Shown in pieces: positions 5,064-61,020 of a stretch of 64,000 nt of DNA; within the stretch, counting starts at the first letter, position 1; each line of letters opens with the position of its first letter. The stretch is taken from assembly GCF_039555335.1 (NCBI RefSeq), contig NC_092647.1, positions 18,820,946 through 18,884,945 of the forward strand, read 5' to 3'. The position numbers and the translations under genes are program-made. This DNA is from Amphiura filiformis. Its lineage: Eukaryota. The notes beneath the pieces are model-generated. The model ran no database searches and was not told where the DNA came from. It saw only the letters and a list, made by a program, of their open reading frames with translations.

Positions 5064-5125
5064 GTTTCCTGGAGTTATAAAACGCAGTATTCATTGCAGT
5101 ATGTAAGGAGTCTCGTTGGTATGAA

Positions 5126-5581
5126 CTAGTTCAAGCTGCAAGTTGCAAGACTGTGTGAAGCCTTTATTGCATTTTTGACATATGTGTAAAGCTCCTCTCT
5201 CGTATGAATTCTTTCATGTCTTCTCAAGCTACAAGCCTGTGTGAAGCTTGTGTTGCAGATTTGGCAAGTATAAGGTTTCTTTTTTGTATGAATTCGTTCA
5301 TGTGCTTTCAAGTTACCTTTCAGTGTGAAGCCTTTATTGCAATATTGACATAAGTAAGGCTTCTCTTTCGTTTGAATTCGTTCATGTATTTTCAAGTAAC
5401 GGGACTTTGCGAAGCCTTTGTTGCAGACTTGGCAAGTATAAGGCTTCTCTTTTGTATGAATTCGTTCATGTATTTTCAAGTCACTTGACTGTGTGAATCC
5501 TTTGTTGCAATATTGACATATGTAAAGCTTCTCTCTCGTATGCATTCGTTCATGTCTTTTCAAGCTACCCAGCAAACACAA
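5126..5581 (-). CDS. ZF gene A fingers 11b-15 downstream of the MITE-a insertion (continuation of CDS 6234-7523)
   Basis: Starts ..SLKRHERMH, which is exactly the missing half of the finger broken at 6260. There are 4 more fingers. One has a H-to-Q ligand change (HERIQ). Confidence 0.65.
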   Translation of the reverse strand: MCLLGSLKRHERMHTREKLYICQYCNKGFTQSSDLKIHERIHTKEKPYTCQVCNKGFAKSRYLKIHERIQTKEKPYLCQYCNKGFTLKGNLKAHERIHTKKKPYTCQICNTSFTQACSLRRHERIHTREELYTYVKNAIKASHSLATCSLN

Positions 5582-6259
5582 AACGTTTTCGACATCATTC
5601 GCAAAAGGTTATAAAAGGTTGTCGGAAAACGTTTAAATGTCGGGTTATATAAAAGGTACATTAATGGTATAAAACGTCTTCATAACATTAAATAACATTT
5701 GTTGGTAATTTACTGCACAGCAAACACAAATGTTTTACAGAAAATATTTAAATGTCGAGTTATATAAAGGGTATAAAAACGTTTTAATAACATTCCAAAA
5801 ACATTTGTGAAAACTTGGTACAAATCATTCCAAACAGAATGTTATTTTGGGGTTGAAAAAATATTTTGCAAAAAATGTTTGCCCAAAATATTTAAAATAA
5901 CGTTTTTAAAATGTTTTCACGACCTTTATAAAACCCGACATTTAAATGTTATTAAAACGTTTTGTAAAAAACATTTAAAGAACATTTCTGTGTTTGCTGG
6001 GTGCAAATATTTTAATATAATGTTATTTAAGTGTTGACAAAATATTTGACCAAAAATGTTTGCAAAAATAGTTTACAATGACATTTCGAAAACATTTTAA
6101 AAATATTGTTGTAGTGTGTTTTCATACAAAACGTTTTAAAACGATTTCATGACCTTTATATAACCCGACATTTTAATGTTATTAAAACGTTTTACCTAAA
6201 CCAAAACCCAAAATATAACTTATTTAAAACGTTTTAAAAACGTTTTTGTGTTTGCTGGG
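5568..6259. mobile_element. composite MITE-a insertion #1 (692 bp): TIR CCCAGCAAACAC/GTGTTTGCTGGG, flanking TA duplication, internal nested copy 5713-6004
   Basis: The ends are perfect inverted repeats. TA is present at 5566-5567 and 6260-6261. The internal 292-bp unit has its own TIRs of about 70 bp (CAGCAAACACAAATGTTTTA..TAAATGTCGAGTTATATAAA). It is 92% identical to the copy at 56483-57173. Confidence 0.7.
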
Positions 6260-7523
6260 TACCTGACTGTATGAAGCTTTTGTTGCAGATTTGGCAAGTG
6301 TAAGGTTCCTCTTTTGAATGAATTCGTTCATGTATTTTCAAGGCACATGACTGTGTGAAGCCTTTGTTGCAGTATTGGCATATGAAAGGCCTCTCTTTCG
6401 TATGGATTCGTTCATGTATTTTCAAGGCACATGACTGTGTGAAGCCTTTGTTGCAATATTGACATGTGTAAGGCGTCTCGTTGGTATGAAATCGTTCATG
6501 ATATTTCAAGTAACCAGACGTTGTGAAGCCTTTGTTGCAGTATTGGCAAATATAAGGCCTTTCTTTGGTATGTATTCGTTCATGTATTTTCAAGTTCCCA
6601 GACTGTGCGAAGCCTTTGTTGCAGTATTGACATATGAAAGGCTTCTCTTTCGTATGAATTCGTTCATGTGTTTTCAATTCACCAGACTGTGTGAAGCCTT
6701 TGTTGCAGTATTGGCATATGAAAGGCTTCTCTTTCGTATGGATTCGTTCATGTGTTTTCAAGTGACCTGACGTTGTGAAGCCTTTGTTGCAGTATTGGCA
6801 TATGAAAGGCTTCTCTTTCGTATGAATTCGTTCATGTCTTTTCAAGTTACCTGACGTTGTGAAGCCTTCGTTGCAGTATTGGCATATGAAAGGCTTCTCT
6901 TTCGTATGGACTCGTTCATGTATTTTCAAGGCACATGGCTGTGTGAAGCCTTTGTTGCAATATTGACATATGTAAGGCGTCTCGTTGGTATGAATTCGTT
7001 CATGTGTTTTTAAGTTCCCAGACGTTGTGAAGCCTTTGTCGCAGTATTGGCATATGAAAGGCTTCTCTTTCGTATGGATTCGTTCATGTGTTTTCAAGTG
7101 ACCTGACTGTGTGAAGCCTTTATTACAGTATTGACATATGAAAGGCTTCTCTTTCGTATTATTTTGTTTATGTACATTTACCTTACTGATTGAAAACGGT
7201 TTGTCAAAATTTTGACCTTGATAAAATACCAATTGCGAATCGTTCTCATTGGTTGGTTTGCTTGATGAACCATTACCACTTGTCCATTGGTCAAGAGATG
7301 GTGACGTCAAATAACCATCGCTTCTGCTATTATCGGAGGTCTTTATATTTCTGCTTGGAATGGGTATCAATTTCTTCTTATAGTCATACCAATATGCACG
7401 AATCCACAGCTCATGACGCAGATGACGCAGATATCGATGATTATTATTAAAGAACCTTCGTCTGCAATATTTACACACGTGAGGCATCAGGTATTCCCAT
7501 TCTCGTGGTCTTCTTAGAGGCAT
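6234..7523 (-). CDS. ZF gene A: N-terminal domain (about 135 aa) plus 10 C2H2 fingers and the first half of finger 11. The stop is provided by the MITE-a insertion.
   Basis: ORF of 429 aa. ATG at 7521-7523 preceded by ..CATTCATTGCAG. C-x2-C-x12-H-x3-H units with HTKEKP(F/Y) linkers. Confidence 0.8.
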   Translation of the reverse strand: MPLRRPREWEYLMPHVCKYCRRRFFNNNHRYLRHLRHELWIRAYWYDYKKKLIPIPSRNIKTSDNSRSDGYLTSPSLDQWTSGNGSSSKPTNENDSQLVFYQGQNFDKPFSISKVNVHKQNNTKEKPFICQYCNKGFTQSGHLKTHERIHTKEKPFICQYCDKGFTTSGNLKTHERIHTNETPYICQYCNKGFTQPCALKIHERVHTKEKPFICQYCNEGFTTSGNLKRHERIHTKEKPFICQYCNKGFTTSGHLKTHERIHTKEKPFICQYCNKGFTQSGELKTHERIHTKEKPFICQYCNKGFAQSGNLKIHERIHTKERPYICQYCNKGFTTSGYLKYHERFHTNETPYTCQYCNKGFTQSCALKIHERIHTKERPFICQYCNKGFTQSCALKIHERIHSKEEPYTCQICNKSFIQSGTQQTQKRF

Positions 7524-18110: not shown

Positions 18111-18489
18111 CGTGAAGATAATGTTAAAAGTTAGGTTAGAAAATATTTCCATTATATTCATTACATTTCTCTTTCATGTGACACCACTAAAAGGGTCATA
18201 CCTTCTTGAAATTTAAAAATATGTCCATTTCAGACAAAAACGTTACTAAGTGCAGAAATAAGGAAGTCATGAAATAAGGAAATAACATAAACTAACATAA
18301 GCTAACACTATCTTACGGTTCACCAAAAAAAAAGCTAATACCTTTTCATGGTTCTCAAAAACACTACTACACATCACTCAACCAAACCTTTCAACAAAAC
18401 GCCAAACGATATATTAGGCTCCTGACTGAGCAACAGTTGCTCTAGTTCTCTTTTGAATTAGCTCGTTCATATAGTTTTAAATGAGTTAT

Positions 18490-18794
18490 ATTTTGGGGTA
18501 TAGTTTTGGTAAAAACGTTTTAATAACATTAAAATGTCGGGTTATACAAAGGTCATCAAAACGTTTTTAATACATATTAAAACACACTACAACGAACTTG
18601 TTGTCAAAATGTTATTGTAAAATGTTTTTGCAAACATGTTTTAACAAATATTTCGTCAACACCTAAGTTACATTATGTTATAAAAACGTTTTATACTCTT
18701 TATATACCTTTTATATAACCCGACATTTACACGTTTTTTGGCAATCTTTTTAACCTTTTGTGAATGTTGTCGGAAACGTGTTGTGTTTGCTGGG
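18490..18794. mobile_element. partial MITE-a (right TIR GTGTTTGCTGGG at 18783-18794) forming the 3' end of ZF gene B
   Basis: TTATATAACCCGACATTTACACG..GTGTTTGCTGGGG junction abutting a finger. The same junction is found at 26817-26828 (gene C). Confidence 0.55.
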
Positions 18795-19230: not shown

Positions 19231-19501
19231 GTTTGTTTGTTTGTTTGTTTACCCAGGTTGGTCCGTGAGGAACACATGCTAATCCATGGAAAACCATGGA
19301 CAGTTCCAAGCTCATACAAATGCACAAGCCTGGATAGCCAGTGTAGGCTAATATATGCATGTTGGCCTAGATAGCTTTGATAAACAAAGCAAGAAATGGA
19401 AGAAAATAGCTAGGAAAAAGAGAAAAGAGAGAAGGCCACTCCCAAACACAATTGTACAATTTTACTCTTAGCCCTTACTTCGTGAGAAAGGAAACTGGAA
19501 T
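19231..19501 (-). mobile_element. insertion of about 270 bp into a finger of gene B, with a (TTTG)5 terminus; SINE-like, family unknown
   Basis: The ZF consensus TTCTCTTTCGTATGAATTCGTTCATG is split between 19230 and 19502 by unrelated sequence that starts with TGTTTGTTTGTTTGTTTGTTT. Confidence 0.4.
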
Positions 19502-19677
19502 TCCAATCTGAATTCGTTCATGTATTTGTAAGTTCCCAGATTGTGTGAAACCTTTGTTGCAGTATTGGCATATATAAGGCTTCACTTTGGTATGGATACG
19601 TTCATGTCTTTTCAAATAAACAGAATGTGTGAAGCCTTTGTTGCAGTATTGGCATAGGTAAGGCTTCTCTTTTGTAT

Positions 19678-21193: not shown

Positions 21194-22839
21194 TCTTTTG
21201 TATGATTTTTGTCATGTGTTTTCAAGTCACTAGACTGTGTGAAGCTTTCTTTGCAGTATTGGCACATGTAAAGCTTCCCTTTGGCATGAAGTAGTTTATG
21301 TGTTTTCAAGTTACCTGACTGTGTGAAGCATTTGTTGCAATATTGGCACATGAAAGGCTTCTCTTTCGTATGAATTCGTTCATGTATTTTCAAGTAACCA
21401 GACGTTGTGAAGCCTTTGTTGCAGTATTGGCATATGAAAGGCTTCTCTTTGGTATGAGTTCGTTCATGTGTTTTCAAGTTACCAGACTGTGTGAAGCCTT
21501 TGTTGCAGTATTGACATATGAAAGACTTCTCTTTCGTATGAATTCGTTCATGTCTTTCCAAGTCAACAGACCGTGTGAAGCCTTTGTTGCAGTATTGGCA
21601 TTTATATGGCTTCTCTTTGGTATGAGTTCGTTCGTGTGTTTTCAAGTGATTAGACTGTGTGAAGCCTTTATTACAGTATTGGCATATATAAAGCTTGTCT
21701 TTGGTATGAATTCGTTCGTGTGTTTTCAAGCTATTTGACCGTGTGAAGCATTTGTTGCAATATTGGCACATGTAAGGTTTCTCTTTCTTATGAATTCGTT
21801 CATGTGTTTTTAAGTTCCCAGATTGTGTGAAACCTTTGTTGCAGTATTGGCATATGAAAGGCTTCTCTTTGGTATGGATACGTTCATGCCTTTTCAAGTG
21901 ACAATAATGTGAGAAGCCTTTGTTGCAGTATTGACATGGGTACGGCTTCCCTTTTGTATGAATTTGTTCATGTGTTTTCAAGTCACTAGACTGTGTGAAG
22001 CATTTGTTGCAGTATTGGCATATGTTAAGCTTTCCTTTGGCATGAAGTAGTTCATGTGTTTTCGAGGTACCTGACTGTGTGAAGCATTTGTTGCAATATT
22101 GGCATATGAAAGGCTTCTCTTTCGTATGAATTCGTTCATGTGTTTTTAAGTTCCCAGACGTTGTGAAGCGTTTGTCGCAGTATTGGCATATAAAAGGCTT
22201 CTCTTTCGTATGAATTCGTACATGTATTTTCAAGTAACGAGACTGTGCGAAGCCTTTGTTGCAGTATTGACATATGTTAGGCTTCTCTTTCGTATGAACT
22301 CGTTCGTGTGCTTTCAAGTTACTAGACTGTGCGAAGCCTTTGTTGCAGTATTGACATATGTAAGGCTTCTCTTTCGTATGAATTCGTTCATGTCTTTCCA
22401 AGTCAACAGACTGTGTGAAGCCTTTGTTGCAGTATTGGCATATGTAGGGCTTCTCTTTTGTATTATTTTGTTTATGTACGTTTACCTTACTGATTGAAAA
22501 CGTTTTGTCATAATTTTGACCTTGGTAAAATAACAGTTGCGAATCGTCCTCCTCGTTCGTTTTTTTGCTTGATGAGTCATTACCACGTGTCCATTGGTCA
22601 GGAGAGGGTGACGTCAGAAAACCATCGCTTCTGCTCTTATCGGAGGTATTTATATTTCTGCTTGGAATGGGTATGAACTTCTTCTTATACGAGTAGTCAT
22701 ACCAATATGCACGAATCCACAGCTCATGATGACGCAGATGATGAAGATATCGATGATTATTATTAAAGAACCTTCGTCTGCAATATTTACACACGTGAGG
22801 CATCAGGTAATCCCATTCTCGTGGTCTTCTTAGAGGCAT
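21055..22839 (-). CDS. ZF gene B: N-terminal domain plus about 16 fingers. The last 46 codons (21055-21193) are read-through into the Penelope IR.
   Basis: MPLRRPREWDYLMPHVCKYCRRRFFNNNHRYLHHLRHH... ATG at 22837-22839 preceded by TTTCAG. Confidence 0.75.
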   Translation of the reverse strand: MPLRRPREWDYLMPHVCKYCRRRFFNNNHRYLHHLRHHELWIRAYWYDYSYKKKFIPIPSRNINTSDKSRSDGFLTSPSPDQWTRGNDSSSKKTNEEDDSQLLFYQGQNYDKTFSISKVNVHKQNNTKEKPYICQYCNKGFTQSVDLERHERIHTKEKPYICQYCNKGFAQSSNLKAHERVHTKEKPNICQYCNKGFAQSRYLKIHVRIHTKEKPFICQYCDKRFTTSGNLKTHERIHTKEKPFICQYCNKCFTQSGTSKTHELLHAKGKLNICQYCNKCFTQSSDLKTHEQIHTKGKPYPCQYCNKGFSHYCHLKRHERIHTKEKPFICQYCNKGFTQSGNLKTHERIHKKEKPYMCQYCNKCFTRSNSLKTHERIHTKDKLYICQYCNKGFTQSNHLKTHERTHTKEKPYKCQYCNKGFTRSVDLERHERIHTKEKSFICQYCNKGFTQSGNLKTHERTHTKEKPFICQYCNKGFTTSGYLKIHERIHTKEKPFMCQYCNKCFTQSGNLKTHKLLHAKGKLYMCQYCKESFTQSSDLKTHDKNHTKEKLRFNLNLVNQTYLFLTDEPTLRLKPSVFSWVVMQMTLSTGHFRY

Positions 22840-22922: not shown

Positions 22923-23010
22923 CCCAGCAAACCCAAAAATGTTTTGAAAGAGTATAAACGTGTTATAAACACGATTTGGTTTTGGTCAAAACGTTTTAAG
23001 AACAAAAAAT
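22923..23010. mobile_element. MITE-a fragment (CCCAGCAAACCCAAAAATGTTTTGAAAG...) about 84 bp upstream of the gene B ATG
   Basis: Left TIR-like end. The conserved upstream block of the other paralogs is truncated here. Confidence 0.4.
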
Positions 23011-23211
23011 GTAGGTAATGGTGAATCCATCGGACGAGGACCCAAATCAAGTATCAATAGTCATGATGTTACCTTTAATATGAACAACTGGAAAGAAAGA
23101 GAGTAAGGTACTCCAACTTGACGTGGGCAAACAAGTAAAATACAGACTATATAACATTCAATAACTAAATAGCATTTAACTCAATAACATTCAAACGTCG
23201 GGTTATGTAAA

Positions 23212-25300: not shown

Positions 25301-25799
25301 GAAAATAATCACAATTTTAAGTGTAAGGCTTCCCTTTTTGATTAATTTGTTTATGTCTCTTCATGATGTCTGACCTTGTGAAGCCTGTATTGGCATATTT
25401 AACGTTTCTCTTTCGTACGTTCATGTGTTTTCAAGCTACCTCATCATGTGAAGCCTTTGTTGCAGTATTGGCACATTTAGGGGTACACGATGTATTGTTG
25501 GTCGAAGCAGCCAAAATATCGATTTTCATTATCTTATATAATTGAAAAATAACACTTTTGTGTTTTGCAGTAGTTCATTCTACAAATCATATACTTTGAA
25601 AACTTGATTTATTGTTGTTATTTACAAAAGTGTTGTTGTTTCAGCTCTCTTTACAACATAACTCAAATACCTACAAAATTAAATATGTGATATTTGAATT
25701 CTTCTACACACTAGCTATGAAATGATCAATGTAATTTTTGCCAAAGCTCACTACCATTGCAAGATGCTGTGAACTACCAAATCGCAACAGTTTAAAATA

Positions 25800-25800
<1 letters not shown>
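25300..25800 (-). pseudogene. ZF pseudogene F: the conserved upstream block (25480-25800) is fused directly to degenerate terminal fingers, with the N-terminal domain deleted
   Basis: 25480-25800 is homologous to 7700-8070. 25305-25480 holds 2 decayed fingers plus the terminal motif AAGTGTAAGGCTTCCC shared with 47930 and 55925. Confidence 0.5.
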
Positions 25801-26579
<779 letters not shown>

Positions 26580-26580
<1 letters not shown>

Positions 26581-26828
26581 CAAAGGTCATCAAAACGTTT
26601 TTAATACATATTAAAACACACTACAACGAACTTGTTGTCAAAATGTTATTGTAAAATGTTTTTGCAAACATGTTTTAACAAACATTTCGTCAACACCTAA
26701 ATTACATTATGTTATAAAAACGTTTTATACTCTTTATATACACTTTATATAACCCGACATTTACACGTTTTTTGGCAATCTTTTTTAACCTTTTGCGAAC
26801 GTTGTCGGAAACGTGTTGTGTTTGCTGG
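26580..26828. mobile_element. partial MITE-a forming the 3' end of ZF gene C (right TIR at 26817-26828)
   Basis: Same finger/MITE junction sequence as at 18794. Confidence 0.55.
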
Positions 26829-27245
26829 GGCGTCTCTTTGGCATGACTTCTCTCATGTGTTTTCAAGTTACCTGACTTTGTGAAGCCTTTGTTGCAGTAT
26901 TGACATATGTAAGGCTTCATTTTTGTATGAATTCGCTCACGTGATTTCAAGTTACCTAACTGTATGAAGCCTTTGTTGTAGTATTGACATTATGTAAGGT
27001 TTCTCTTTGGTATGGATACATTCATGTCTTTTCAAGCTACCTGACTGTGTGAAGCCTATGTTGCAGTATTGGCATAGGTAAGGCTTCTCTTTAGTATGAA
27101 CTTGCTCATGTGTTTTGAAGTCACTAGACTGTGTGAAGCATTTGCTGCAGTATTGGCATATGTAAAGCTTCCCTTTGGCATGGAGTAGTTCATGTGTTTT
27201 CAACTTACCTGACTTTGTGAAGCCTTTGTTGCAGTATCGGCACAT
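26702..27245 (-). CDS. ZF gene C distal fingers (two ORF pieces, 26952-27245 and 26702-26950, separated by 1-bp indels), ending inside the MITE-a
   Basis: Finger motifs. The C-terminus ..HAKETPQQTQHVSDN.. is encoded by the MITE-a TIR. Confidence 0.6.
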
Positions 27246-28555
27246 GTAAGGCTTCTCTTTGTATGAATTCGTTCATGTGTTTTTAAGTTCCCAGATTGTG
27301 TGAAACCTCTGTTGCAGTATTGGCATATGAAAGGCTTCTCTTTGGTATGGATACGTTCATGCCTTTTCAAGTGACAATAATGTGAGAAGCCTTTGTTGCA
27401 GTATTGACATGGGTACGGCTTCCCTTTTGTATGAATTTGTTCATGTGTTTTCAAGTCACTAGACTGTGTGAAGCATTTGTTGCAGTATTGGCATATGTTA
27501 AGCTTTCCTTTGGCATGAATTAGTTCATGATATTTCAAGCTGCTTGATTGTGTGAAGCTTTTGTTACAGTATTGACATACATATGGCTTTTTGTTGGTAT
27601 GGATTCGTTCATGTGTTTTCAAGTTACTTGACTGTGTGAATCCTTTGTTGCAGTATTGGCATACATATGGCTTTTTGTTGGTATGGATTCGTTCATGTGT
27701 TTTCAAGTTACTTGACCCTGCGAAGCCTTTATTGCAATATTGGCATATGAAAGGCTTCTCTTTCGTATGAATTCGTTCATGTACTTTCAGGTCATCAGAC
27801 CGTGCGAAGCCTTTGTTGCAGTATTGGCATAGGTAAGGCGTTTCTTTCATATGAATTCGTTCATGTCTTTTCAATTCACCAGACTGTGTGAAGCCTTTGT
27901 TGCAGTATTGGCATATGTAAGGTTTCTCTTTCGTATGAATTCGTTCATGTCTTTTTAAGTTCCCAGAGTGTGTGAAGCCTTTGTTGCAGTATTGGCATAT
28001 GAAAGGCGTCTCTTTCGTATGAATTCGTTCATGTGTTTTCAAGTTACCATACTGTGCGAAGCCTTTGTTGCAGTATTGACATATATAAAGCTTCTCTTTG
28101 GTGTGGATTCGTTCGTGTGTTTTCAAGCTACTTGACCGTGTGAAGCCTTTGTTGCGGTATTGGCATATGAAAGGCTTCTCTTTCATATTATTTTGTTCAT
28201 GTACGTTTACCTTACTGATTGAAAACGGTTTGTCATAATATTGACCTTGGTAACATAACAGTTGCGAATCGTCCTCCTCATTCGTTTTTTTGCTTGTTGA
28301 GTCATTACCACGTGTCCATTGGTCAAGAGATGGTGACGTCAGAAAACCATCGCTTCTGCTATCGGATGTATTTATATTTCTGCTTGGAATGGGTATCAAC
28401 TTCTTCTTATAGTCATACCAATATGCACGAATCCACAGCTCATGATGACGTAGATGACGCAGATATCGATGATTATTATTAAAGAACCTTCGTCTGCAAT
28501 ATTTACACACGTGAGGCATCAGGTATTCCCATTCTCGTGGTCTTCTTAGAGGCAT
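27200..28555 (-). CDS. ZF gene C: N-terminal domain plus about 11 fingers
   Basis: ORF of 451 aa. ATG at 28553-28555 preceded by TTTCAG. Confidence 0.8.
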   Translation of the reverse strand: MPLRRPREWEYLMPHVCKYCRRRFFNNNHRYLRHLRHHELWIRAYWYDYKKKLIPIPSRNINTSDSRSDGFLTSPSLDQWTRGNDSTSKKTNEEDDSQLLCYQGQYYDKPFSISKVNVHEQNNMKEKPFICQYRNKGFTRSSSLKTHERIHTKEKLYICQYCNKGFAQYGNLKTHERIHTKETPFICQYCNKGFTHSGNLKRHERIHTKEKPYICQYCNKGFTQSGELKRHERIHMKETPYLCQYCNKGFARSDDLKVHERIHTKEKPFICQYCNKGFAGSSNLKTHERIHTNKKPYVCQYCNKGFTQSSNLKTHERIHTNKKPYVCQYCNKSFTQSSSLKYHELIHAKGKLNICQYCNKCFTQSSDLKTHEQIHTKGKPYPCQYCNKGFSHYCHLKRHERIHTKEKPFICQYCNRGFTQSGNLKTHERIHTKRSLTCADTATKASQSQVS

Positions 28556-31900: not shown

Positions 31901-32470
31901 GCGTACATTGGAAACGACACCCCCTGGTTCAAAAGCCGTTGTTGACTGTGGTATCTCCGCACAATTATGCAGGCATCTGGACTCTAAATCTTCTCCGTTA
32001 TCCTTGTCCTTTTCATCAGAATCCGCTTCAAAGTTCTCAATCACAACCTAACAGAAAAACTAAGCGCTGGAAAAAGCGTGGAAAAAAAGGTGGTCGCAAA
32101 TCACGACTACAGAACCTTGAACCAAACCCCATCCCCGTGCTCATAACTACTAGACTGGTTTCACCCACCCATTGTCAGTCTTCTGTAAATCACAAGTTCT
32201 TGCGTTCATTTCAAAGACAAAATGATAGAAATGTTAACATTCGACAATGGAACGCACGCTCAGTCCGTAAGAAAACTGTGGCAATTAGCGAAAACATCAT
32301 TGAAAACGATGTTGACATTTTCGTGATCACCGAAACTTGGCTTGCTGAAGACGACCCAGTAGTGATAGGCGAACTGCTACCCCCCGGGTATTCATTTATG
32401 AATTTCCCCAGAAAAAGTAGTGAGCATGGCGGTATTGGTATTGTTCACAAAACCCAACTGAGCCTTCAGA

Positions 32471-33940
32471 GTGCTCCTACATGCCAGTGTAATTGTCAAA
32501 AAAACTGGACTTAGAATAATATCAATCTACCGTCCCCCTCCGTCCAAAGAAAATGGGTTTAAAACGAGTGATTACCTGTGTGAATTTGAAGCTTTCTTAG
32601 ATGAAATTTGTCTCACTCCGACAAAAACCATTCTCCTTGGGGATTACAACATTCACGTTGATCTACCTTCTAAGCCAGAGGTGTCTAGGTTTCTGGATGC
32701 CCTCACCGTCAATGGTCTTCACCAGCATGTTGATTCACCAACACATAAGGATGGTCACATACTGGACCTCGTCATATCACGTCCTGAAGATGACCTAGTG
32801 GACAAGTGTTGTGTTTTGCCAGGCTTAGGATCTGATCACAAGTTGGTATACTGGACCTTAAATTGTATTAAACCAGCGCCACTCAGGGTTACGTCAATTG
32901 TTAGGAACATTAAAAACATTGACGCGATTTTATTTGCAAATGATCTTAAATCTGAAGTTGGAGGTCTTGATGCTCGGGGTCCTGTCGATGAGATGCTCGA
33001 TAAATTTGATTTATCCGTGTCTGGTGTGTTCGACGTTCATGCACCTCCTCGACAACGATCTCGGAGTATCAAACCTCGGCTTCCTTGGTGTAATGAAGAC
33101 ATTAATGTTGCCAGACGTGAAAGGAGAAGGATTGAGCGTAAATGGCGCAAATCCAAGAGTAATGTAGATCTTGAAGCCTATGTTGAGCAAACTAAATATG
33201 TCAGTAAATTAATCCAGTGTGCTAAGGAAGTATACTATAATGATATTCTTGAGTCTGCCGATACTAAGAACATGTACTTTACCTTAAACAAACTGTTGAG
33301 TAAGAACACTAGACAACTGCCTGATGCAGAATGTATGATTGAATTGTGCAATTCATTTGCAAGGTACTTTACTCAAAAGGTAATTAAGATCAGAAATGAA
33401 CGCGATGCAACACCTGTTACGTATAATGCTGCCCATACTATACTTGATGAGAGTTCTAACCTTAACACACCATCTTTTTGTGAGTTTAGGCATGTTTCTG
33501 CTGATGATATCAAGAAAATTGTGCTCGCAACACCTAACAAGACTAGTTCTTTAGACACAATTCCTATGGAGTTGCTCAAAGATAATATCAATGTTTTGAT
33601 CCAACCTCTTGCCAGTATATCGTTCATCAATCACTCAGTAGCGGAGTATTTCCTTCAAAACTTCGTGAGGCGGTGGTATCTCCCATCCTCAAAAAATCCA
33701 CGCTTGACAAAAACATCCTTAAGAACTACCGCCCTGTCTCAAATATCAGGTACCTCTCGAAAATCATGGAGAAAATTGCTTGTGCTCAAATCAAAGATCA
33801 TCTCAGTACCAATTGCCTTCTTGAGGATTTCCAATCTGCGTACAGACAGCAGCACAGCACGGAGACGGCTTTACTACGAGTCGAAACGGATATCCTGTGT
33901 GCTTTGGACAATTATAAGGCTGTGGCTGTTGTGTTGTTAG
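32471..33940 (+). CDS. LINE-2 endonuclease and RT N-terminal segment
   Basis: See element evidence. Confidence 0.65.
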   Translation: MLLHASVIVKKTGLRIISIYRPPPSKENGFKTSDYLCEFEAFLDEICLTPTKTILLGDYNIHVDLPSKPEVSRFLDALTVNGLHQHVDSPTHKDGHILDLVISRPEDDLVDKCCVLPGLGSDHKLVYWTLNCIKPAPLRVTSIVRNIKNIDAILFANDLKSEVGGLDARGPVDEMLDKFDLSVSGVFDVHAPPRQRSRSIKPRLPWCNEDINVARRERRRIERKWRKSKSNVDLEAYVEQTKYVSKLIQCAKEVYYNDILESADTKNMYFTLNKLLSKNTRQLPDAECMIELCNSFARYFTQKVIKIRNERDATPVTYNAAHTILDESSNLNTPSFCEFRHVSADDIKKIVLATPNKTSSLDTIPMELLKDNINVLIQPLASISFINHSVAEYFLQNFVRRWYLPSSKNPRLTKTSLRTTALSQISGTSRKSWRKLLVLKSKIISVPIAFLRISNLRTDSSTARRRLYYESKRISCVLWTIIRLWLLCC

Positions 33941-34461
33941 ACCTATCCGCAGCCTTCGACACTGTAGATCATCAGATACTGTTGAAACGGCTTTCGAATA
34001 CTTTTGGTATTTCTGGAACAGTCCTGAATTGGATAAGATCCTATCTCAAGGACCGCTCATTCCGGGTGTGTCTGGGGGATAATTCGTCCATTAATCACAC
34101 GCTTGACTTCGGCCTCCCACAAGGATCTGTTGTTGGACCTTTATTCTTCAGCATGTATACTTATCATATCGGTGCCATCATACGGAATCATAACATCTGC
34201 TACCATATGTATGCCGATGATGTCCAACTTTATCTGACGTTCAACCCAAAAGTGGATGGAGACGGTCATCGAGCAGTGACCAGATTGGCAGCCTGCATTG
34301 ATGAAATTAGTGCATGGATGACTCAGAATAAACTGAAACTTAACAATGATAAGCCGTTACATTACCACAGAAAGTTGCCATCATCTTGTCCGTGCTCTGA
34401 TTCTGTCCCGGCTCGACTACGCCAATGCTCTGATGTTTGGGATTTCGGCCAAAGACCGTAA
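33673..34461 (+). CDS. LINE-2 RT core
   Basis: FDTVDH, YADDVQLY. Confidence 0.7.
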   Translation: MVSPILKKSTLDKNILKNYRPVSNIRYLSKIMEKIACAQIKDHLSTNCLLEDFQSAYRQQHSTETALLRVETDILCALDNYKAVAVVLLDLSAAFDTVDHQILLKRLSNTFGISGTVLNWIRSYLKDRSFRVCLGDNSSINHTLDFGLPQGSVVGPLFFSMYTYHIGAIIRNHNICYHMYADDVQLYLTFNPKVDGDGHRAVTRLAACIDEISAWMTQNKLKLNNDKPLHYHRKLPSSCPCSDSVPARLRQCSDVWDFGQRP

Positions 34462-34855
34462 GCAGCTGCAGAAAGTCCAAAACAGGGCCGCAAGAATTGT
34501 TTTTAGAGCCGAAAGACTGCATCCATCAGCACCGCTACTCAAACACCTTCATTGGCTGCCAATTGAACAGCGAATCAAGTTCAAAATCTTGCTTATCACC
34601 TTCAAAGGAGTCCACGGCCTCATTCCACCTTACCTCGCCGAATTTCTTCAGAGATATTCATGCGGTAGGCCAAACTTGCGTTCCAGTGATGACAGTCTCC
34701 TTTTACGCAATCCACGAACCTACAGAAACGACGGTGACAAGGCCTTCTACGCTGCAGCCCCCCGACTATGGAACTCCATACCTGCTTCCCTTCGTCATTC
34801 CTCCTCTGTCCTTGCTTTTAGGAAGGGTCTTAAGACCTATTTATTCCCCGGTTGA
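34346..34855 (+). CDS. LINE-2 RT C-terminal conserved domain
   Basis: RLDYANALMFG..LHWLPIEQRIKFKIL. Confidence 0.65.
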   Translation: MISRYITTESCHHLVRALILSRLDYANALMFGISAKDRKQLQKVQNRAARIVFRAERLHPSAPLLKHLHWLPIEQRIKFKILLITFKGVHGLIPPYLAEFLQRYSCGRPNLRSSDDSLLLRNPRTYRNDGDKAFYAAAPRLWNSIPASLRHSSSVLAFRKGLKTYLFPG

Positions 34856-44360: not shown

Positions 44361-46236
44361 TAATGATACTGAGATAAAATTGTTACTAATTTTGAGTTAG
44401 ATTCAGAATGCCAAAATCGGGGACTTCACAAGTGAAAAAAAAATTTCCACCATACTCCCATGGGACCAGGATTTGTACCATTCGAGAATCGAGACAGTAA
44501 CGTTTGCTTACTACTTACTTGAGAACTCTAGCTTCAAATTTGCACACAATAGTTTTACATGTACAGCTTTGTACGCATTCGATGCTATCATGCTCGAGTC
44601 CATTTGCTATCATTATTTCAGTGGATCTGCCAATCAGCACTGACATGTAATATTTCTGCTGATTTTGATGCAAGTTAAAATTTGATTGAGTCAACTGTGT
44701 ATTTTAAGGAAATGCTGCCTATTTTTAACAGTCTAATATTTAGTTGAAGTGCAAACTGCAATTTTAGCAACATTTTTGATACGATCTCCAGCAGTGATCG
44801 GCTGTATTTACTTACAGCTTCCCTAGCCATTGATTTCTAAGTACTAGATTTTGATAGGTCAGGACTCGTCTTTAAATAGTGTGAAGCTATCTGTGACAAA
44901 TTCGAAGCTAGACTTCTCGTACAAGCGTTCATGTGTATTGTGTAATTACACACACAATCACATGTTTATAAATTAACACTGTTTGAAGGCCGCAGTCACC
45001 TCGCACCACATCCCGAACCCCGAAGAATCCCTAAGTATAATATGTTGTAGTAAACCTTTGATGAGCCCGTACGTACCGTGATGTTGCAAAGTCAGAGCTA
45101 ACAATGTGTTATGTACGGCACAAAGTTAATTTGTAAATTTCCACTGACTCCACATCAGCAGATCACCTCTGCAGAGCTCTGCAGACAACAATCAGACAAG
45201 TGTGTTCCAACAAATGACTGAGTAAATTTTGTGATGTACACTCTCGTCAAAGGTTTACTCATGTACTCCAAACGCCATGCCATCAGACAGAATCAGTATC
45301 ATGCATGCATGCAATGGCTAGTATTATAATATATTTATAATATTCCAGTGTAATAGTATGTGTGCCATGTACAAATGTGAAATGATGTAAACATTCATTG
45401 TAATGTACAGATGACAGATGTATCATGCACGGGATCATGCAGGAATTTTAGACGGGACTATATGGACCTAGCCTGCGCCTGTCGAGCTGTATCAATAAAA
45501 TCAACAGAAATCAGTTCGTTAAGTACTTACTTTCTCGTTTTGAGATTTTCTTTCGTGCTCAAAATTACCAAATAGATGTTGAAAATTCGTTCAATTTTCA
45601 ATCAAATCTGCTCCCGTTGACAGATCGTGCCACGGCGAACGAAATCAATCAGCTGTTCAAAGGTCAAATCAAATTGATCAGGTCAACAGTCACTTCCGTT
45701 TCCCCGAAATATGGGGAACCAATCAGAAGAGTCGTTATATGTGCTCTTTTGCAGACTGTTTGTTAGGAGGATCGACGAGTGTCAGACCGACGCAAACTGG
45801 CTGTGTAGGAGACTACTGCCAGGTAAAGCGTTTAAATGACGTCAGGTCAGTTACCAATTTAATGGACGAAGCCGTTTGCCCGAAGCAATGATACCACTTG
45901 TATGAGTAGCCAGTCGGCAAATATTTATTTTTCAACCTCATTGTATACACCACCAAATTCTTTCGACAAGTTTTTTTTAATTACACGTTACCTCTCGTAG
46001 GTTCTAGATGAATAAGAAGAGGTGTTTGTACACTACCGAAGAACGAAGAATAACGGACGGAGATTCAGTGAAGAAAGAAATTGTTCTAGATACACACCAT
46101 ACACATCGAACTTCTATTGACGCAGTACTAAAGCACTTACTTTGCTGAGAAAAGTAAGCACAAGTACACGTGGATTGATTTATTATAGGACTTGAGTTTG
46201 GAATCTTACCTTCAGAATTTCATAGACTAATGACTA

Positions 46237-46462
46237 CCCAGCAAACACACAGCGTTTTACAGAACATGTTTAAATGTCGGGTTATATAAAAACGTTCTAA
46301 TAACATTCATAAAACATTTTTGAAAGCGTGATGCAAAATATTTTAACAGAATGTTATTTAACTGTTGACAAAATATTTTGCCAATCTTAATATCATGACA
46401 TTTAAATGTTATTAGAAAAAACGTTTTGAATAACCGTTTTAATAACATTTTAGTGTTTGCTA
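46237..46462. mobile_element. solo MITE-a unit (about 225 bp), TA-flanked on the left, right TIR degenerate
   Basis: TA+CCCAGCAAACACACAGCGTTTTAC..TAAATGTCGGGTTATATAAA..AATAACATTTTAGTGTTTGCTAG. Confidence 0.55.
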
Positions 46463-46578
46463 GCTAGACACAGAAACAGTTAATTGGATTAGCAAATACA
46501 CTCAGTTGATAGCAAACGCTCTCCAAAAATTAGGAAGACAAATTTAATGAACAAACTAAATTTTAATCACAAAGTAAC

Positions 46579-47241
46579 TTAAGGGCTGGGGTATGAACGT
46601 TTGGACAGTATTTATTGTGGGACATTAGAGCACATCAGACATGTCGAATTGCATTCTGAATACGAAGAATGTCATTCTGATATCAAATAATTTTGATTTT
46701 TGAAATTCGCAATTTAATACACATTTTATGGCAAATCATTAAAATTGATATTTTTGATATTTAACAGTACTTGAAGTAAACTTTATAAATCTGATGATTT
46801 ATACTTAAAGTGTATGTAGGTGGGATGAAAAGCCGACGATCAATTGAAAATTTTGACCTTTCGTATTGAAAATATGGATTTTTTCCCAAAACACCAAAAA
46901 AATTAGGTCTTTTGGGAAAAAAATCCATATCTTCAATATGAAAGGTCAAAATTTTCAATTGACCGTCGGCTTTTCTCCTGCTACATACACTTTAAGAATA
47001 TGTCATTAGATTTATATAATTTACTTCGAGGACTGTTATATATCAAAAATTTGAAAAATATCAAATTTTTACAATTTGTCATAAAATTTGTATTATATTG
47101 TGATTTTCAAAAAATGGAAATTATTTAATATCAGAAAGACATGCTTCGTATTCAGAATGCAATTCGATAGGTCTGAGGTGCTCTCATGTCCCATAAAAAA
47201 TACTGTCGAAACGCAATAAACGCTCATTTTAGATCCCTTAA
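46579..47241. mobile_element. TTAA-flanked foldback element (655 bp, 46583-47237) with termini GGGCTGGGGTATGAAC.../...GATCCC
   Basis: TTAA at 46579-46582 and 47238-47241. The arms are near-perfect reverse complements meeting at about 46905. A near-identical copy lies at 59425-60091. Confidence 0.7.
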
Positions 47242-47294
47242 CAGAGAAAAATGATACCTAAAAACTGCATTGCTAGTGTAAAAATTTGTTTTGT

Positions 47295-48352: not shown

Positions 48353-49357
48353 TTACAGTATTGACATAATTATGTAAGGCTTCTCCTTGGTATGGGTTCG
48401 TTCATGTCTTTTCAAGTGACCAGACGTTGTGAAGCTTTTGTTGCAGAGTTGGCATAAGTAAGGCTCCTCTCTCGTATGAATTCGTTCATGTGCTTTCAAG
48501 CTACATGCCTGTGTGAATCCTTTGTTGCAGAATTGGCAAGTATAAGGTTTTTCATTGGTATGAATTCTTTCATGTCTTTTCAAGCTATATGACAGTGTGA
48601 AACCTTTATTGCAGTATTGGCATTTGTAAGGCGTCTCTTTGGTATGAATTCTTTCATGTGCTTTCAATCCACTAGACTGTGTGAAGCCTTTGTTGCAGTA
48701 TTGACATGTGAAAGGCTTCTCTTTGGTATGAATTCGTTCATGTGTTTTCAAGTGACAAGACTGTGTGAACCCTTTGTTACAGTATTGGCATATGTAAGGC
48801 TTCTCTTTCGTATGAATTCGTTCATGTCTTTTCAAGCAACTTGACTGTGTGAAGCATTTGCGGCAGTATTGGCATATGTAAGGCTTCTCTTTGGTATGTG
48901 TTCGAGTGTGTTCTTTCAAGTCACATGACTGTGTGAAGCCTTTTTTACAGTATAAACATATGTAAGGCTTATCTTTGATGTGGGTTCGTTCATGTACGTT
49001 TATATTACTCACGATTGGAAACGTTTTTTCATAACGTTCACCTTGGTAATATTCCAATTGCGAATCGTTCTCATTCATTTCTTTGCTTATTGAGTCATTT
49101 CCACGTGTCCAATGGTTTAGAGATGGTGATGTCAGAAAACCATCTGTTCTGCTATCATCGGCGATGCTTATCTTACTGCTTGGTATTGGTATCGGTATCA
49201 ACTTCTTCTTATAGTCATACCAGTATGCACGAATCCACAGCTCATGATGACGCAGATGACGAAGATATCGATGATTATTATTAAAGAACCTTCGTCTGCA
49301 ATATTTACACACGTGAGGCATTAGATGGTCCCATTCTCTTGGTCTTCTTAGAGGCAT
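48353..49357 (-). CDS. ZF gene E: N-terminal domain plus about 7 fingers
   Basis: ORF of 334 aa. ATG at 49355-49357 preceded by TTTCAG. Confidence 0.8.
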   Translation of the reverse strand: MPLRRPREWDHLMPHVCKYCRRRFFNNNHRYLRHLRHHELWIRAYWYDYKKKLIPIPIPSSKISIADDSRTDGFLTSPSLNHWTRGNDSISKEMNENDSQLEYYQGERYEKTFPIVSNINVHERTHIKDKPYICLYCKKGFTQSCDLKEHTRTHTKEKPYICQYCRKCFTQSSCLKRHERIHTKEKPYICQYCNKGFTQSCHLKTHERIHTKEKPFTCQYCNKGFTQSSGLKAHERIHTKETPYKCQYCNKGFTLSYSLKRHERIHTNEKPYTCQFCNKGFTQACSLKAHERIHTREEPYLCQLCNKSFTTSGHLKRHERTHTKEKPYIIMSIL

Positions 49358-55573: not shown

Positions 55574-56050
55574 GCTTCTATTGTAACACATTCCATCCAC
55601 CATTTACAACATTGAAAGTTAGAAGCCGTAAATCAGAGATTTCAGTTAACGCCAAACAAGACGTAACTCAGTACGTACAGGAATACTAAAGAATATCTTA
55701 AATTCCACTATTCTTATATATATTGACATTTGTTATAATGGATAGGATACAACATCCGGTTATTATAGGCTAAACTTGACTTAAATCAGACACTTACATT
55801 GTGAGTTATACTTAGGTTTAGTTCGGTAAAAATATTAAAACCTGTTCTCAAAATTGCATTTCTTGAGTTAAGGCTTTTCTGGTTCTCAACCCTCGAATAA
55901 ATAAATAGAAAGATAACAAAATAATTCGTTCATGTCTCTTCATGATATCACACCTTGTGAAACATTTTTCGCAGTATTAGCATAAGGCTTCTCTTTAGTA
56001 TGAATTCATTTATGTGTTTAGTAACTAGACAGTGGGAAGCCTTTGTTGCA

Positions 56051-56494
56051 TTATTTACCTATGTAAGGATTATCTTTGATATGAACTCTTTCATGCTTCT
56101 TCAAATTATTTGACGCTGCAAAGCTTTTATTGCAATACTGGCATTTGTAAGGCTTCTCTTTGGTATGGATTCGTTCATGTATTTTCAAGTTCCCAGACTG
56201 TGTGAAGCATTTTTTGCAGTATTTACATATGTAAGGCTTCTCTTTGGTATGAATTCGTTCATGTCTTTTCCAGTGACCTGACTGTGTGAAGCCTTTATTA
56301 CAGTATTGACATACGTAAGGCTTCTCTTTCGTATGGATTCGTTCATGTGTTTTCAACTTAAATAACTGTGTGAAGCCTTTGTTGCAGACTTTGCATAGGT
56401 AAGGCTTCTCTTTCGTATGAATTCGTTCATGTGTTTTCAAATTACATAACTGTATGAAGCCTTTGTTGCAGTATTGGCATATCCCAGCAAACAC
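56051..56494 (-). CDS. ZF gene G distal 5 fingers (continuation after the MITE-a insertion)
   Basis: Begins ICQYCNKGF, which completes the linker KETPY|I broken at 57174. Confidence 0.65.
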   Translation of the reverse strand: MFAGICQYCNKGFIQLCNLKTHERIHTKEKPYLCKVCNKGFTQLFKLKTHERIHTKEKPYVCQYCNKGFTQSGHWKRHERIHTKEKPYICKYCKKCFTQSGNLKIHERIHTKEKPYKCQYCNKSFAASNNLKKHERVHIKDNPYIGK

Positions 56495-57173
56495 AAAACG
56501 TTTTCGACATTATTCGCAAAAGGTTATAAAAGGTTGTCAGAAAACGTTTAAATGTCGGGTTATATAAAGGGCATATTAAGGGTATAAAACGTTTTCATAA
56601 CATTGAAAATCATTTTTTGATAATCTACTGCTCAGCAAACAAAAATATTTTACAGAAAACGTTTAAATGTCGGGTTATATAAAGGGTATAAAAACGTTTT
56701 AATAACATTCCAAAAACATTTTTGAAAACTTGATACAAAACATTCTAAACAGAATGTTATTTTGGGAGTTGAAAAATATTTTGCGAAAAATGTTTGCCCA
56801 AAATATTTGCAATAACGTTTTGAAAACGTTTTCATGACCTTTATATAACCCGACATTTAAATGTTATTAAAACGTTTTGAAAAAAACATTTTAAGAACAT
56901 TTCTGTGTTTGCTGGATGCAAATATTTTAACATAATGTTATTTAAGTGTTGACAAAATATTTGGCAAAAATGTTTGCAAAAAAGTTTACAATAACATTTT
57001 GAAAACATTTTAAAAATATTGTGGTAGTGTGTTTTCATACAAAACGTTTTAAAACGTTTTCATGACCTTTATATAACCCGACATTTTAATGTTATTAAAA
57101 CGTTTTTATGTAAACCAAAAACCAAAATATAACTTATTAAAAACGTTTTTAAAACGTTTTTGTGTTTGCTGGG
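56483..57173. mobile_element. composite MITE-a insertion #2 (691 bp), AT duplication at 56481-56482 and 57174-57175
   Basis: Same four-part internal structure, about 92% identical to 5568-6259. Perfect TIRs CCCAGCAAACAC/GTGTTTGCTGGG. Confidence 0.7.
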
Positions 57174-58642
57174 ATGTAAGGCGTCTCTTTGGTATGAATT
57201 CGTTCATGTATTTTCAAGTTATATGACCGTATGAAGCATTTATTACAATATTGGCATATGTAAGGCGTCTCTTTGGCATGAGTTTGTTCATGTACTTTCA
57301 AGTTACCTGACTTTGTGAAGCCTTTTTTACAGTATTGGCATATGTAAGGCTTCTCTTTGGTATGGATTCGTTCATGTTCTTTCAAGTGACCTGACCGTGG
57401 GAAGCCTTTATTACAATATTGACATATGTAAGGCTTCTCTTTCGTATGAATTCGTTCATGTGTTTTCAAATGACATAACTGTGTGAAGCCTTTGTTGCAG
57501 TATTGGCATATGTAAGGCGTCTTATTGGTATGAATTCGTTCATGTGATTTCAAGTGGCCAGACGTTGTGAAGCCTTTATTACAATATTGACATATGTATG
57601 GCGTCTCTTTGGTATGGATTCGTTCATGTGTTTTCAAGGGACTTGACTGTGTGAAGCCCTTATTACAGTATTGACATATGTAAGGCTTCTCTTTCGTATG
57701 AATTCGTTCATGTGTTTTCAAATGACATAACTGTGTGAAGCCTTTGTTGCAGTATTGGCATATGTAAGGCGTCTTATTGGTATGAATTCGTTCATGTGAT
57801 TTCAAGTGGCCAGACGTTGTGAAGCCTTTATTACAATATTGGCATATGTATGTCGTCTCTTTGGTATGGATTCGTTCATGTGTTTTCAAGTGACTTGACT
57901 GTGTGAAGCCCTTATTACAGTATTGACATATGTAAGGCTTCTCTTTCGTATGAATTCGTTCATGTGTTTTCAAATTACATAACTGTGTGAAGCCTTTGTT
58001 GCAGCGTTTGCATAGGTAAGGCCTCTCTTTGGTATGATTTAGTTCATGATTTTTCAAGCTATGTACATATGGAAACCCTTTATTGCAAAACTGACATAGG
58101 TACGGCGTCTCCTTGGTATGAATTCGTTCATGTCTTTTCAAGTTACCTGACTGTGTGAAGCCTTTTTTACAGTATTGACATATGTAAGGCTTCTCCTTGG
58201 TATGGATTCGTTCATGTACTTTCAAGTTACTTAACTGTGTGAAGCCTTTATTACAGTATTGACATATGTAAGGCTTCTCGGTTCGTTCATGTACTTTTAC
58301 CTTACTCCTGGTTGGAAACATTGTCTCATAATATTCACCTTGGTAAAATACCAATTGCGAATCGTTCTCCTTCGTTTGTTTGCTTGATGGGTCATTTTCA
58401 CCTGTCCATTGGTCAAGAAATGGTAACGTCAGAAAACCGCCTTTTCTAATGGCATCGGAGATGTTTATATTTCTGCTTGGAGAGGGTATCATCAACTTCT
58501 TCTTATACCAGTATGCTCGAATCCACAGCTCATGACGACGTAGATGACACAGATATCGATGTGTATTATTAAAGAACCTTCTGCAATATTTACACACGTG
58601 AGGCATCAAGCACTGCCATTCTCGTGATCCTCTTGGAGGCAT
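57149..58642 (-). CDS. ZF gene G: divergent N-terminal domain (MPPRGSREWQCLMPHVCKYCRRFFNNTHRYLCHLRRH..) plus 13 fingers. The stop is provided by the MITE-a.
   Basis: ORF of 497 aa. ATG preceded by TTGTTCCAG. Confidence 0.8.
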   Translation of the reverse strand: MPPRGSREWQCLMPHVCKYCRRFFNNTHRYLCHLRRHELWIRAYWYKKKLMIPSPSRNINISDAIRKGGFLTLPFLDQWTGENDPSSKQTKENDSQLVFYQGEYYETMFPTRSKVKVHERTEKPYICQYCNKGFTQLSNLKVHERIHTKEKPYICQYCKKGFTQSGNLKRHERIHTKETPYLCQFCNKGFPYVHSLKNHELNHTKERPYLCKRCNKGFTQLCNLKTHERIHTKEKPYICQYCNKGFTQSSHLKTHERIHTKETTYICQYCNKGFTTSGHLKSHERIHTNKTPYICQYCNKGFTQLCHLKTHERIHTKEKPYICQYCNKGFTQSSPLKTHERIHTKETPYICQYCNKGFTTSGHLKSHERIHTNKTPYICQYCNKGFTQLCHLKTHERIHTKEKPYICQYCNKGFPRSGHLKEHERIHTKEKPYICQYCKKGFTKSGNLKVHEQTHAKETPYICQYCNKCFIRSYNLKIHERIHTKETPYIPANTKTF

Positions 58643-59424: not shown

Positions 59425-60091
59425 TTAAGGGCTGGGGTATGAACGTTTGGACAGTATTTATTTTGGGACATTAGAGCACATCAGACATATCGAATTGCAT
59501 TCTGAATACGAAGAATGTCCTTCTGATATGAAATAATTTTGATTTTTTGAAATTCGCAATTTAATACACATTTTATGGCAAATCATTAAAAATTGATATT
59601 TTTGATATTGAACAGTACTCGAAGTAAACTTTACAAATTTGATGATTTATACTTAAAGTGTATGTAGATGGGATGAAAAGCCGACGATCAATTGAGAATT
59701 TTGACCTTTCGTATTGGAGATATGGATTTTTTCCCCAAAACACCAAAAAAAAGGGTCTTTTGGGACAAAAATCCATATCTTCAATATGAAAGGTCAAAAT
59801 TTTCAATTGACCGTCGGCTTTTCCTCCCAGCTACATACACTTTAAGAATATATCATTAGATTTATATAATTTACTTCGAGGACTGTTATATATCAAAAAT
59901 TTGAAAAATATTAAATTTTCATAATTTGTCATAAAATTTGTATTATATTGTGATTTTCAAAAAATGAAAATTATTTGATTTCAGAAAGACATGCTTCGTA
60001 TTCAGAATGCAATTCGATAGGTCTGAGGTGCTCTCATGTCCCTCAAAAAATACTGTCGAAACGCAATAAACGCTCATTCTAGATCCCTTAA
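59425..60091. mobile_element. second copy of the TTAA-flanked 655-bp foldback element
   Basis: TTAA at 59425-59428 and 60088-60091. About 95% identical to 46583-47237. Confidence 0.7.
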
Positions 60092-60119
60092 ACAGATACA
60101 ATTATTTGACTTATACCAA

Positions 60120-61020
60120 ACACTCAGAACGCCACTGACTATCATCTATTGTTATGCATAGTCGCGCTAAAAGTTCACAGATACACCTTTTTGCTATGAA
60201 ATTCATTTTCTCGGTCAAATATAAAGAAATATTTTTTTCTTTAGTAATGTCAGTTAAAAACATAGTGCGTACCTTTTTTAGAACAAAATCTTGGTGTTAA
60301 AATTAGGCATAAAATAAATTGTGTCTTTCAGTATAAGATTTTTGATTTTTACAGGTCTCAACTTCGCCCGTGAGCTTTTTGCTTATTTTTTTTTGGCGTT
60401 TGAAACTAATATAGTTTGCTAAAGAAAGATATTTCCCACCTCTGTACTAAGGCACATCATGTGGGGCTATATATTGTAGTTTTGTCGGAATATCCGTTTT
60501 CACTTGCGACTGCCAAAATGTCCAACCAGTACAAAAATGTACTTCATTTCTAATAAAACTAGCAGACATAATCGATATTTCTATTGTGGCTTGCAAAATC
60601 ATCCATCCATGGGTACATTCGGGAGTTGATTTTGACAATATTGGTAGTCGGAATTGAAAAATGGTGCCGCAGAACCTGACAAAATTCTGACAAAACTATG
60701 ACATATAGTTTTACATAATGTGCTTTAGAAAGTTGGGAAATATCTTTCGTTAGCGAATTATGTTACTTTGAAAAGCAAAAACGTTGACCCAAAAAAGCTC
60801 GCGGGGCAAGTTGAAGCCTGTGAAAATCAAACATCTTACACTAGAAGCCTAAATTTCACACCTAAGTTTAACATCAGGTTTTAATAAAATATACAGCATC
60901 TATCATTATAGTTTTCTTCTGACATTTGCCGAAGAAATGAAAATTATTGGTTTTCATTTGACCGAGAAAATTAATTATGAAGTGAAAAGATGTAACTAAA
61001 AAATTTGCTAATTTCAACTC
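60120..61020. mobile_element. large foldback of about 900 bp (nested inverted arms: 60352-60447 versus 60725-60825, and 60150-60230 versus 60900-60990)
   Basis: CAGGTCTCAACTTCGCCCGTGAGCTTTTT is the reverse complement of AAAAAAGCTCGCGGGGCAAGTTGAAGCCTGTG. CATTTTCTCGGTCAAAT pairs with ATTTGACCGAGAAAATTAAT. Confidence 0.5.

Follow-up and report, generated by a model that had tools for sequence, protein, structure and literature searches.

In a stretch of 64,000 nucleotides of the genome of Amphiura filiformis (assembly GCF_039555335.1, contig NC_092647.1, forward-strand positions 18,820,946 to 18,884,945; hereafter the window, from whose first letter all coordinates are counted), two tandemly arranged C2H2 zinc-finger paralogs, here called genes A and G, are each interrupted by a copy of the same composite element. 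The element belongs to a family of miniature inverted-repeat transposable elements (MITEs), here called MITE-a, and consists of one family member nested within another. The history that we consider likely is that the nested MITE was mobilised as a unit and reached the finger arrays of the two genes by independent insertions, both of which can be explained by the abundance of such targets. The coordinates of the features are collected in Table 1.

The interruption of gene G can be read from the gene itself. An intact finger unit of the same gene, located at about 57255-57277, has the sequence ttggcatATgtaaggcgtctc with one AT only, and removal of the copy in gene G (copy G) together with one AT restores the finger sequence and yields an uninterrupted open reading frame (ORF) of 632 amino acids on the minus strand (MPPRGSREW…KETPYICQYCNKGF…NPYIGK, followed by the stop codon), as an earlier note on this DNA had claimed for the finger region. 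The same operation on gene A, from which the copy (copy A) and one target-site duplication are removed, gives ..CNKSFIQSGSLKRHERMH.., that is …CNKSFIQSG/SLKRHERMH…, and again an uninterrupted ORF. Moreover, the 84-bp finger arrays delimited by Tandem Repeats Finder end at the element boundaries in both genes (55983-56482 and 57174-58279 in gene G; 5139-5568 and 6264-7174 in gene A).

From a structural perspective, MITE-a is a non-autonomous cut-and-paste DNA transposon of the MITE type, with 12-bp termini CCCAGCAAACAC. Its copies possess terminal inverted repeats (TIRs), perfect at 12/12 positions in both composites, and a 2-bp duplication for which the empty site can be reconstructed; they are small (228-692 bp), non-coding and multicopy, the longest ORF inside copy G having 68 amino acids. 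With at most one mismatch allowed, the window contains 11 occurrences of the TIR 12-mer, where 0.23 would be expected, and all 11 are ends of family copies. The family was surveyed by an nhmmer search of the 64-kb window, in which six MITE-a loci were found, corresponding to five independent genomic events and one nesting event. Subterminal inverted repeats of about 50 nt (AAATGTCGGGTTATATAAAGG…) are present in the element, together with about a dozen copies per element of the palindrome AAAACGTTTT, which may be regarded as putative transposase-binding sites; the 9-mer AAACGTTTT is found 56 times in the window, where 1.9 occurrences are expected, and 50 of the 56 fall within family copies. No Rfam family and no tRNA was matched anywhere in the window by the Rfam and tRNA scans. 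A reading of copy G as a spliced intron was discarded, as inspection by eye found no frame-restoring GT/AG pair near the junctions. Alternative readings of the duplication (zero-length or 3-bp) and longer TIRs were also rejected, being inconsistent across the copies.

Copies A and G can be aligned end to end with 92.9% identity, close to the value of about 92% previously given. Both contain an inner element at an identical site, with identical TG/TG flanks. This inner element has TIRs and a duplication of its own, and when it is removed together with one TG the outer arms are collinear through the junction with un-nested members of the family, namely the inner-type element and the copy at 46 kb (…TGCAAA…); the composite is therefore the product of a nested insertion and not of a rearrangement. 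Identity between copies A and G amounts to 93.0% in the inner part and to 94.0% in the outer. Since the site and flanks of the inner element are the same in both copies and the divergence of the two parts is equal, nesting occurred once, and the composite thereafter moved as a single unit. Furthermore, the outer termini are unchanged at 48/48 bases in copies A and G taken together, while the inner termini show four changes in 48 bases; this difference fits an immobilised inner element, even if the counts are too few for significance.

The comparison of the two loci points to separate arrivals. On neither side are the junctions the same (tcaagcTA/…/TAcctgac for gene A, ggcatAT/…/ATgtaagg for gene G), each of them rebuilds an intact finger unit with its own clean 2-bp duplication, and within the 84-bp unit the two sites are separated by about 45 bp, that of gene A following IQSG in the recognition helix. 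When the first 390 nt of the ORFs are compared, gene A shares 93-94% identity with two paralogs that have no composite (at 21 kb and 27 kb) but only 83.7% with gene G, the outgroup of the five paralogs whose 5' end is complete. The whole-gene alignment of A and G gives 80.5% identity, and the composites have diverged by a Kimura two-parameter (K2P) distance of 0.067. The statement of the earlier note that the two genes differ substantially holds as regards the degree (83.7% in N-terminal DNA), but they are still clear paralogs. Different junctions, independent 2-bp duplications and inserts more alike (93%) than the genes that harbour them (80.5-83.7%) thus indicate two independent insertions, and on these sequence comparisons the proposal that the genes had already diverged when the composite moved as a unit, and that gene G was struck in a second, independent event at a different finger position, is supported.

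The opposite view, in which a single ancestral insertion was inherited through gene duplication or copied by gene conversion or unequal crossing-over, can draw on the fact that both inserts have the same orientation and are separated from the 3' end of their gene by about five fingers (432 and 442 bp to the stop), and on a gapped BLAST alignment that spans both loci (5022-7172 vs 55982-58048, 81%). Despite the shared distance from the 3' end, it is practically excluded by the differing junctions, and the insert-free state of the closest paralogs of gene A, with gene G as the outgroup, makes it still harder to sustain, so that we regard it as extremely improbable. In particular, gene conversion with identical flanks, which the earlier note had named as one finding that would overturn its claim, is contradicted by the difference between TA and AT.

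Some observations weigh against the history proposed here, in which the abundance of targets suffices and the two insertions are simple arrivals. Although the composites have diverged by about 6.7% (K2P), both severed 3' gene parts have kept an open frame; with neutral divergence set at 3.5%, the probability that no new stop arises is about 0.35-0.38 per gene, and it is lower when indels are included. Two readings follow: the insertions are far more recent than the separation of their source copies, or constraint still acts on the 3' parts. In addition, no autonomous MITE-a partner is present within the 64-kb window: no transposase was recognised among its ORFs, the large ones being reverse transcriptases of the long interspersed nuclear element (LINE) or Penelope-like type and zinc-finger genes. 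Finally, finger-like DNA makes up 13.8-14.3% of the window, and three of the five independent family events fall in it (P ~0.02), while four of the five lie in the paralogs or within 100 bp of them, that is in 17.7% of the window (P ~0.004). Both tests of preference are post hoc and concern five events in one window that had been flagged for these very hits; the association exceeds the expectation from simple abundance, but it is weak and only suggestive.

With respect to age, the divergence of 6.7% dates the split of the source lineages and not the insertions. Taken together with the open 3' parts, it suggests that the insertions in A and G were probably recent and derived from different source copies, in which case further composite copies are predicted elsewhere in the genome. 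Local reinsertion is an established behaviour of several cut-and-paste transposons, and one composite could accordingly have given rise to the other or be closely related to it, which would explain the presence of two composites within 52 kb. The density of the family in the window (six loci in 64 kb) and the same orientation of composites A and G agree with such local hopping; a divergence of about 6.7% combined with undecayed ORFs, however, fits two recent arrivals from different sources better than an old local hop, and local hopping alone does not explain why finger DNA was hit both times. This explanation is considered rather unlikely.

A true preference of MITE-a for this zinc-finger family, directed by the transposase or by the chromatin state in the germ line, is also unlikely, somewhat more so than local hopping. 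It would account for the excess of events in and near finger DNA given above and for the fact that five of the six paralogs carry or adjoin a family copy. In addition, two of the three array insertions, that of gene G and an older un-nested copy at 18469 in the opposite orientation, have junctions only 9 bp apart in finger phase, in the segment coding for the linker. The three array sites, however, share no common motif and have different duplications (TA, AT and GC), one of them is in the helix and two in the linker, and both orientations of the element are represented; family members are also found within each other and in non-genic DNA, and the statistical support has the post hoc character and the small number of events already mentioned. 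Finger arrays are interrupted by unrelated elements as well. Two insertions unrelated to MITE-a (19226-19509 and 25481-25815) are located in the finger arrays of pseudogenised paralogs, which shows that the arrays tolerate insertions in general; the former opens with a (TTTG)n run that may represent the tail of an element similar to short interspersed nuclear elements. Because finger DNA accounts for about 14% of the window, the family is dense and the arrays tolerate insertions, two array hits within 52 kb require no special mechanism, and we infer that the composite was not targeted to them.

The assignment of MITE-a to a superfamily depends mainly on its target-site duplication. Matching 2-bp flanks were found at all four complete copies of the window (TA, AT, TG and TA), in agreement with the consistent 2-bp duplication anticipated by the earlier note, and single-flank readings gave GC for the copy at 18469 and TT for the fragment at 22923; two of the duplications were checked against empty sites in finger units and one against family collinearity. 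Such variable duplications imply that the enzyme cuts with a 2-bp stagger and shows little sequence specificity. Tc1/mariner elements duplicate TA. The short TIRs, the 2-bp duplication and the presence of TA at two of the four complete copies are reminiscent of these elements (Stowaway-like MITEs), but MITE-a also duplicates AT and TG (both flanks) and GC and TT (one flank), and the Tc1/mariner-like transposase suggested before is not borne out. PIF/Harbinger elements produce a 3-bp TWA duplication and were rejected, as the duplications of MITE-a are 2 bp long at all complete copies and a 3-bp reading fails at copy A (TAC vs GTA). The ISL2EU-like alternative fares no better. ISL2EU elements, of the PHIS superfamily, duplicate AT within an A-AT-T target and have TIRs starting with GG (PMC4482050). 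MITE-a shares with them the 2-bp duplication and, at the site of copy G, the dinucleotide AT; unlike them, it has AT at only one of its four duplications, there with T and G as neighbours (cat-AT-gta), and its TIRs start with CC (CCCAGC). The CMC(T) clade, which includes EnSpm, Mirage, Chapaev and Plavaka, is known to have duplications of 2-5 bp whose sequence is not fixed, and its termini are usually 5'-CA..TG-3' (PMC12730594). The variable 2-bp duplication of MITE-a falls within this range, whereas its intact ends are all 5'-CC..GG-3' and CAC is found only in one decayed inner copy. On the features of ends and duplications, a full match of MITE-a with Tc1/mariner, ISL2EU, PIF/Harbinger or CMC(T) is not supported. 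It is conceivable, but quite improbable, that MITE-a represents an undescribed cut-and-paste lineage, with variable 2-bp duplications and CC..GG ends, that in addition has a real bias for this tandem zinc-finger family and truncates its finger arrays time and again; if this were true, a transposon would preferentially disrupt, or remodel, the kind of gene usually thought to police transposons.

Returning to the preferred history, in which abundance is sufficient, the events may be ordered as follows. A 286-bp family member would have inserted into a member of about 403 bp, with duplication of TG. The inner termini would then have decayed while the outer ones stayed perfect, leaving a composite of 691 bp; since its outer termini are intact, we infer that it was still mobilisable by a transposase acting in trans. 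Copies of this composite subfamily would subsequently have inserted independently in the finger exons of two paralogs of the tandem cluster, A and G, with TA duplicated in the former and AT in the latter, and the ORFs would have been truncated to 429 amino acids in gene A and to 497 instead of 632 amino acids in gene G.

Table 1. MITE-a copies, their parts and the interrupted zinc-finger genes, in window coordinates.
Feature	Position	Strand	Description
Composite MITE-a, copy G	56483..57173	+	691 bp; 286-bp element nested in a related element of ~403 bp
Outer left TIR, copy G	56483..56494	+	CCCAGCAAACAC; perfect
Outer right TIR, copy G	57162..57173	-	GTGTTTGCTGGG on the + strand; perfect
AT target-site duplication, left, copy G	56481..56482	.	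single AT in the intact unit
AT target-site duplication, right, copy G	57174..57175	.	
Inner element, copy G	56631..56916	+	286 bp; decayed TIRs CTCAGCAAACAA / GTGTTTGCTGGA; TG at 56629-56630 and 56917-56918
Gene G, 5' part	57149..58642	-	ATG (58642) and 13 fingers, then into the element; stop after 7 foreign residues (..TPYIPANTKTF, stop); 497 aa
Gene G, 3' part, severed by the insertion	56051..56482	-	144 codons, among them five intact fingers, up to the original stop; frame open
Composite MITE-a, copy A	5568..6259	+	692 bp; TA at 5566-5567 and 6260-6261; same orientation as copy G
Inner element, copy A	5716-6001		286 bp; TG/TG flanks
Gene A, single-exon C2H2 paralog	5126..7523	-	broken after ..IQSG in the recognition helix; truncated ORF of 429 aa
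Older un-nested MITE-a copy	18469..18794	-	one TIR intact, abutting finger DNA (GCTGGG/GCgtctc); other end deleted
Duplicate of the 18469 insertion	26576..26829	-	within finger array 25840-28203
MITE-a terminal fragment	22923..23014	+	84 bp upstream of the ATG of an intact 594-aa paralog (21055-22839)
Short MITE-a copy	46237..46464	+	228 bp; outside any zinc-finger gene; TA/TA (46235-46236, 46465-46466)

Among the remaining copies of MITE-a, that at 18469 has been duplicated together with its surroundings, as part of it and five fingers are included in a segmental duplication (18544-19224 vs 26578-27260; 683 bp, 95.5%); in the duplicate at 26.5 kb the distal part of the element was lost through a deletion that fused element and finger DNA. 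For the fragment at 22923, the empty site is available in gene A and in the paralog at 27 kb (…GGGYTACTT/GTTAGTTC…). A scan of metagenomes for the terminus and the subterminal motif gave one match, at positions 909-930 of locus L002 (contig Ga0316188_10145005), where the same 22-nt terminus, CCCAGCAAACACAAAACGTTTT, stands at the boundary between a satellite with a period of about 30 bp and unique AT-rich sequence. This locus has no other similarity to the window, and the match may be due to chance or to a related element of some other organism. The same motif combination gave no match in the viral collection, and no MITE-a copy was found in a 14-kb locus of an ENA assembly (L003, reached through the protein P0129).

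The genes hit by the composite belong to a group of single-exon C2H2 paralogs arranged in tandem, all on the minus strand (ORFs 6234-7523, 21055-22839, 27200-28555, 48353-49357 and 57149-58642), whose N-terminal region is shared (MPLRRPREW.YLMPHVCKYCRRRFFNNNHRYL…) and whose TKEKPY linker is unusual. A single homolog of the N-terminal region was found in 5.8 billion proteins (P0121, with 62% identity, encoded on a 1.3-kb contig of GCA_013332995.1), and these paralogs form a lineage-restricted zinc-finger family. When the reconstructed 632-residue product of gene G was used for a protein search, generic zinc-finger proteins dominated the matches. Three ORFs of the window, of 497, 594 and 859 amino acids, had no entry when looked up as exact proteins. 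Within the array of gene G, the part at 57174-58279 has a higher-order period of 252 bp, equal to three fingers, with 89% matches, which indicates a recent internal duplication of a block. An interstitial telomere-like array lies just downstream of gene A (4478-4708), and is composed of (AACCCT)n with variants, with a period of 20 and 11 copies.

Other repeats are present in the window. A sequence of about 670 bp occurs twice (46579-47245 and 59425-60096), the two copies being 95% identical and each forming a long inverted repeat with arms about 83% complementary, and a palindromic structure of about 820 bp is located at 60179-60997; all three may belong to another family, of foldback-type or long-TIR elements. 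A reverse-transcriptase ORF with an RVT_1 domain (19921-21114, plus strand) overlaps the 3' end of the minus-strand paralog 21055-22839 and is possibly Penelope-like, to judge by eye from its GIY-YIG-like tail. LINE-type ORFs are found at 12961-16370 and 31939-34855, and the best protein matches of a LINE ORF of the window are from Amphiura filiformis, with 51-60% identity.

Young tandem genes of the C2H2/KZFP type, many copies of which are pseudogenised, accumulate insertions. The family described here resembles such clusters in having transposon insertions in young tandem finger genes, and differs from them in its lineage-restricted N-terminal region and its unusual TKEKPY linker. Nested and self-inserted MITEs have long been known (PMC5172404). 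In plants and mosquitoes, nested or multimeric MITEs are described and self-insertion is frequent in some families (Jiang and Wessler, 2001, as reported in PMC5172404). As far as that report describes them, those cases and the present one have in common the insertion of one MITE into another of its family, accompanied by a target duplication of its own; as compared with what is related there, the present case differs in that the nested product was itself re-mobilised as a unit and is seen at two new positions, in that its host is an animal and in that its duplication, of 2 bp, varies in sequence. The composite insertions in the finger genes are, in this sense, real but ordinary transposon biology.

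Their consequences are nevertheless of some practical and biological interest. Two otherwise intact zinc-finger ORFs are split, and will appear in gene predictions in truncated form or as separate genes. The composite offers a clean case of a nested MITE that remains mobile provided that its outer termini are preserved, and MITE-a is a family defined by a variable 2-bp duplication outside the usual superfamilies with 2-bp duplications. If the association with zinc-finger genes were to hold genome-wide, the family would be a useful system for the way in which transposons shape fast-evolving finger arrays.

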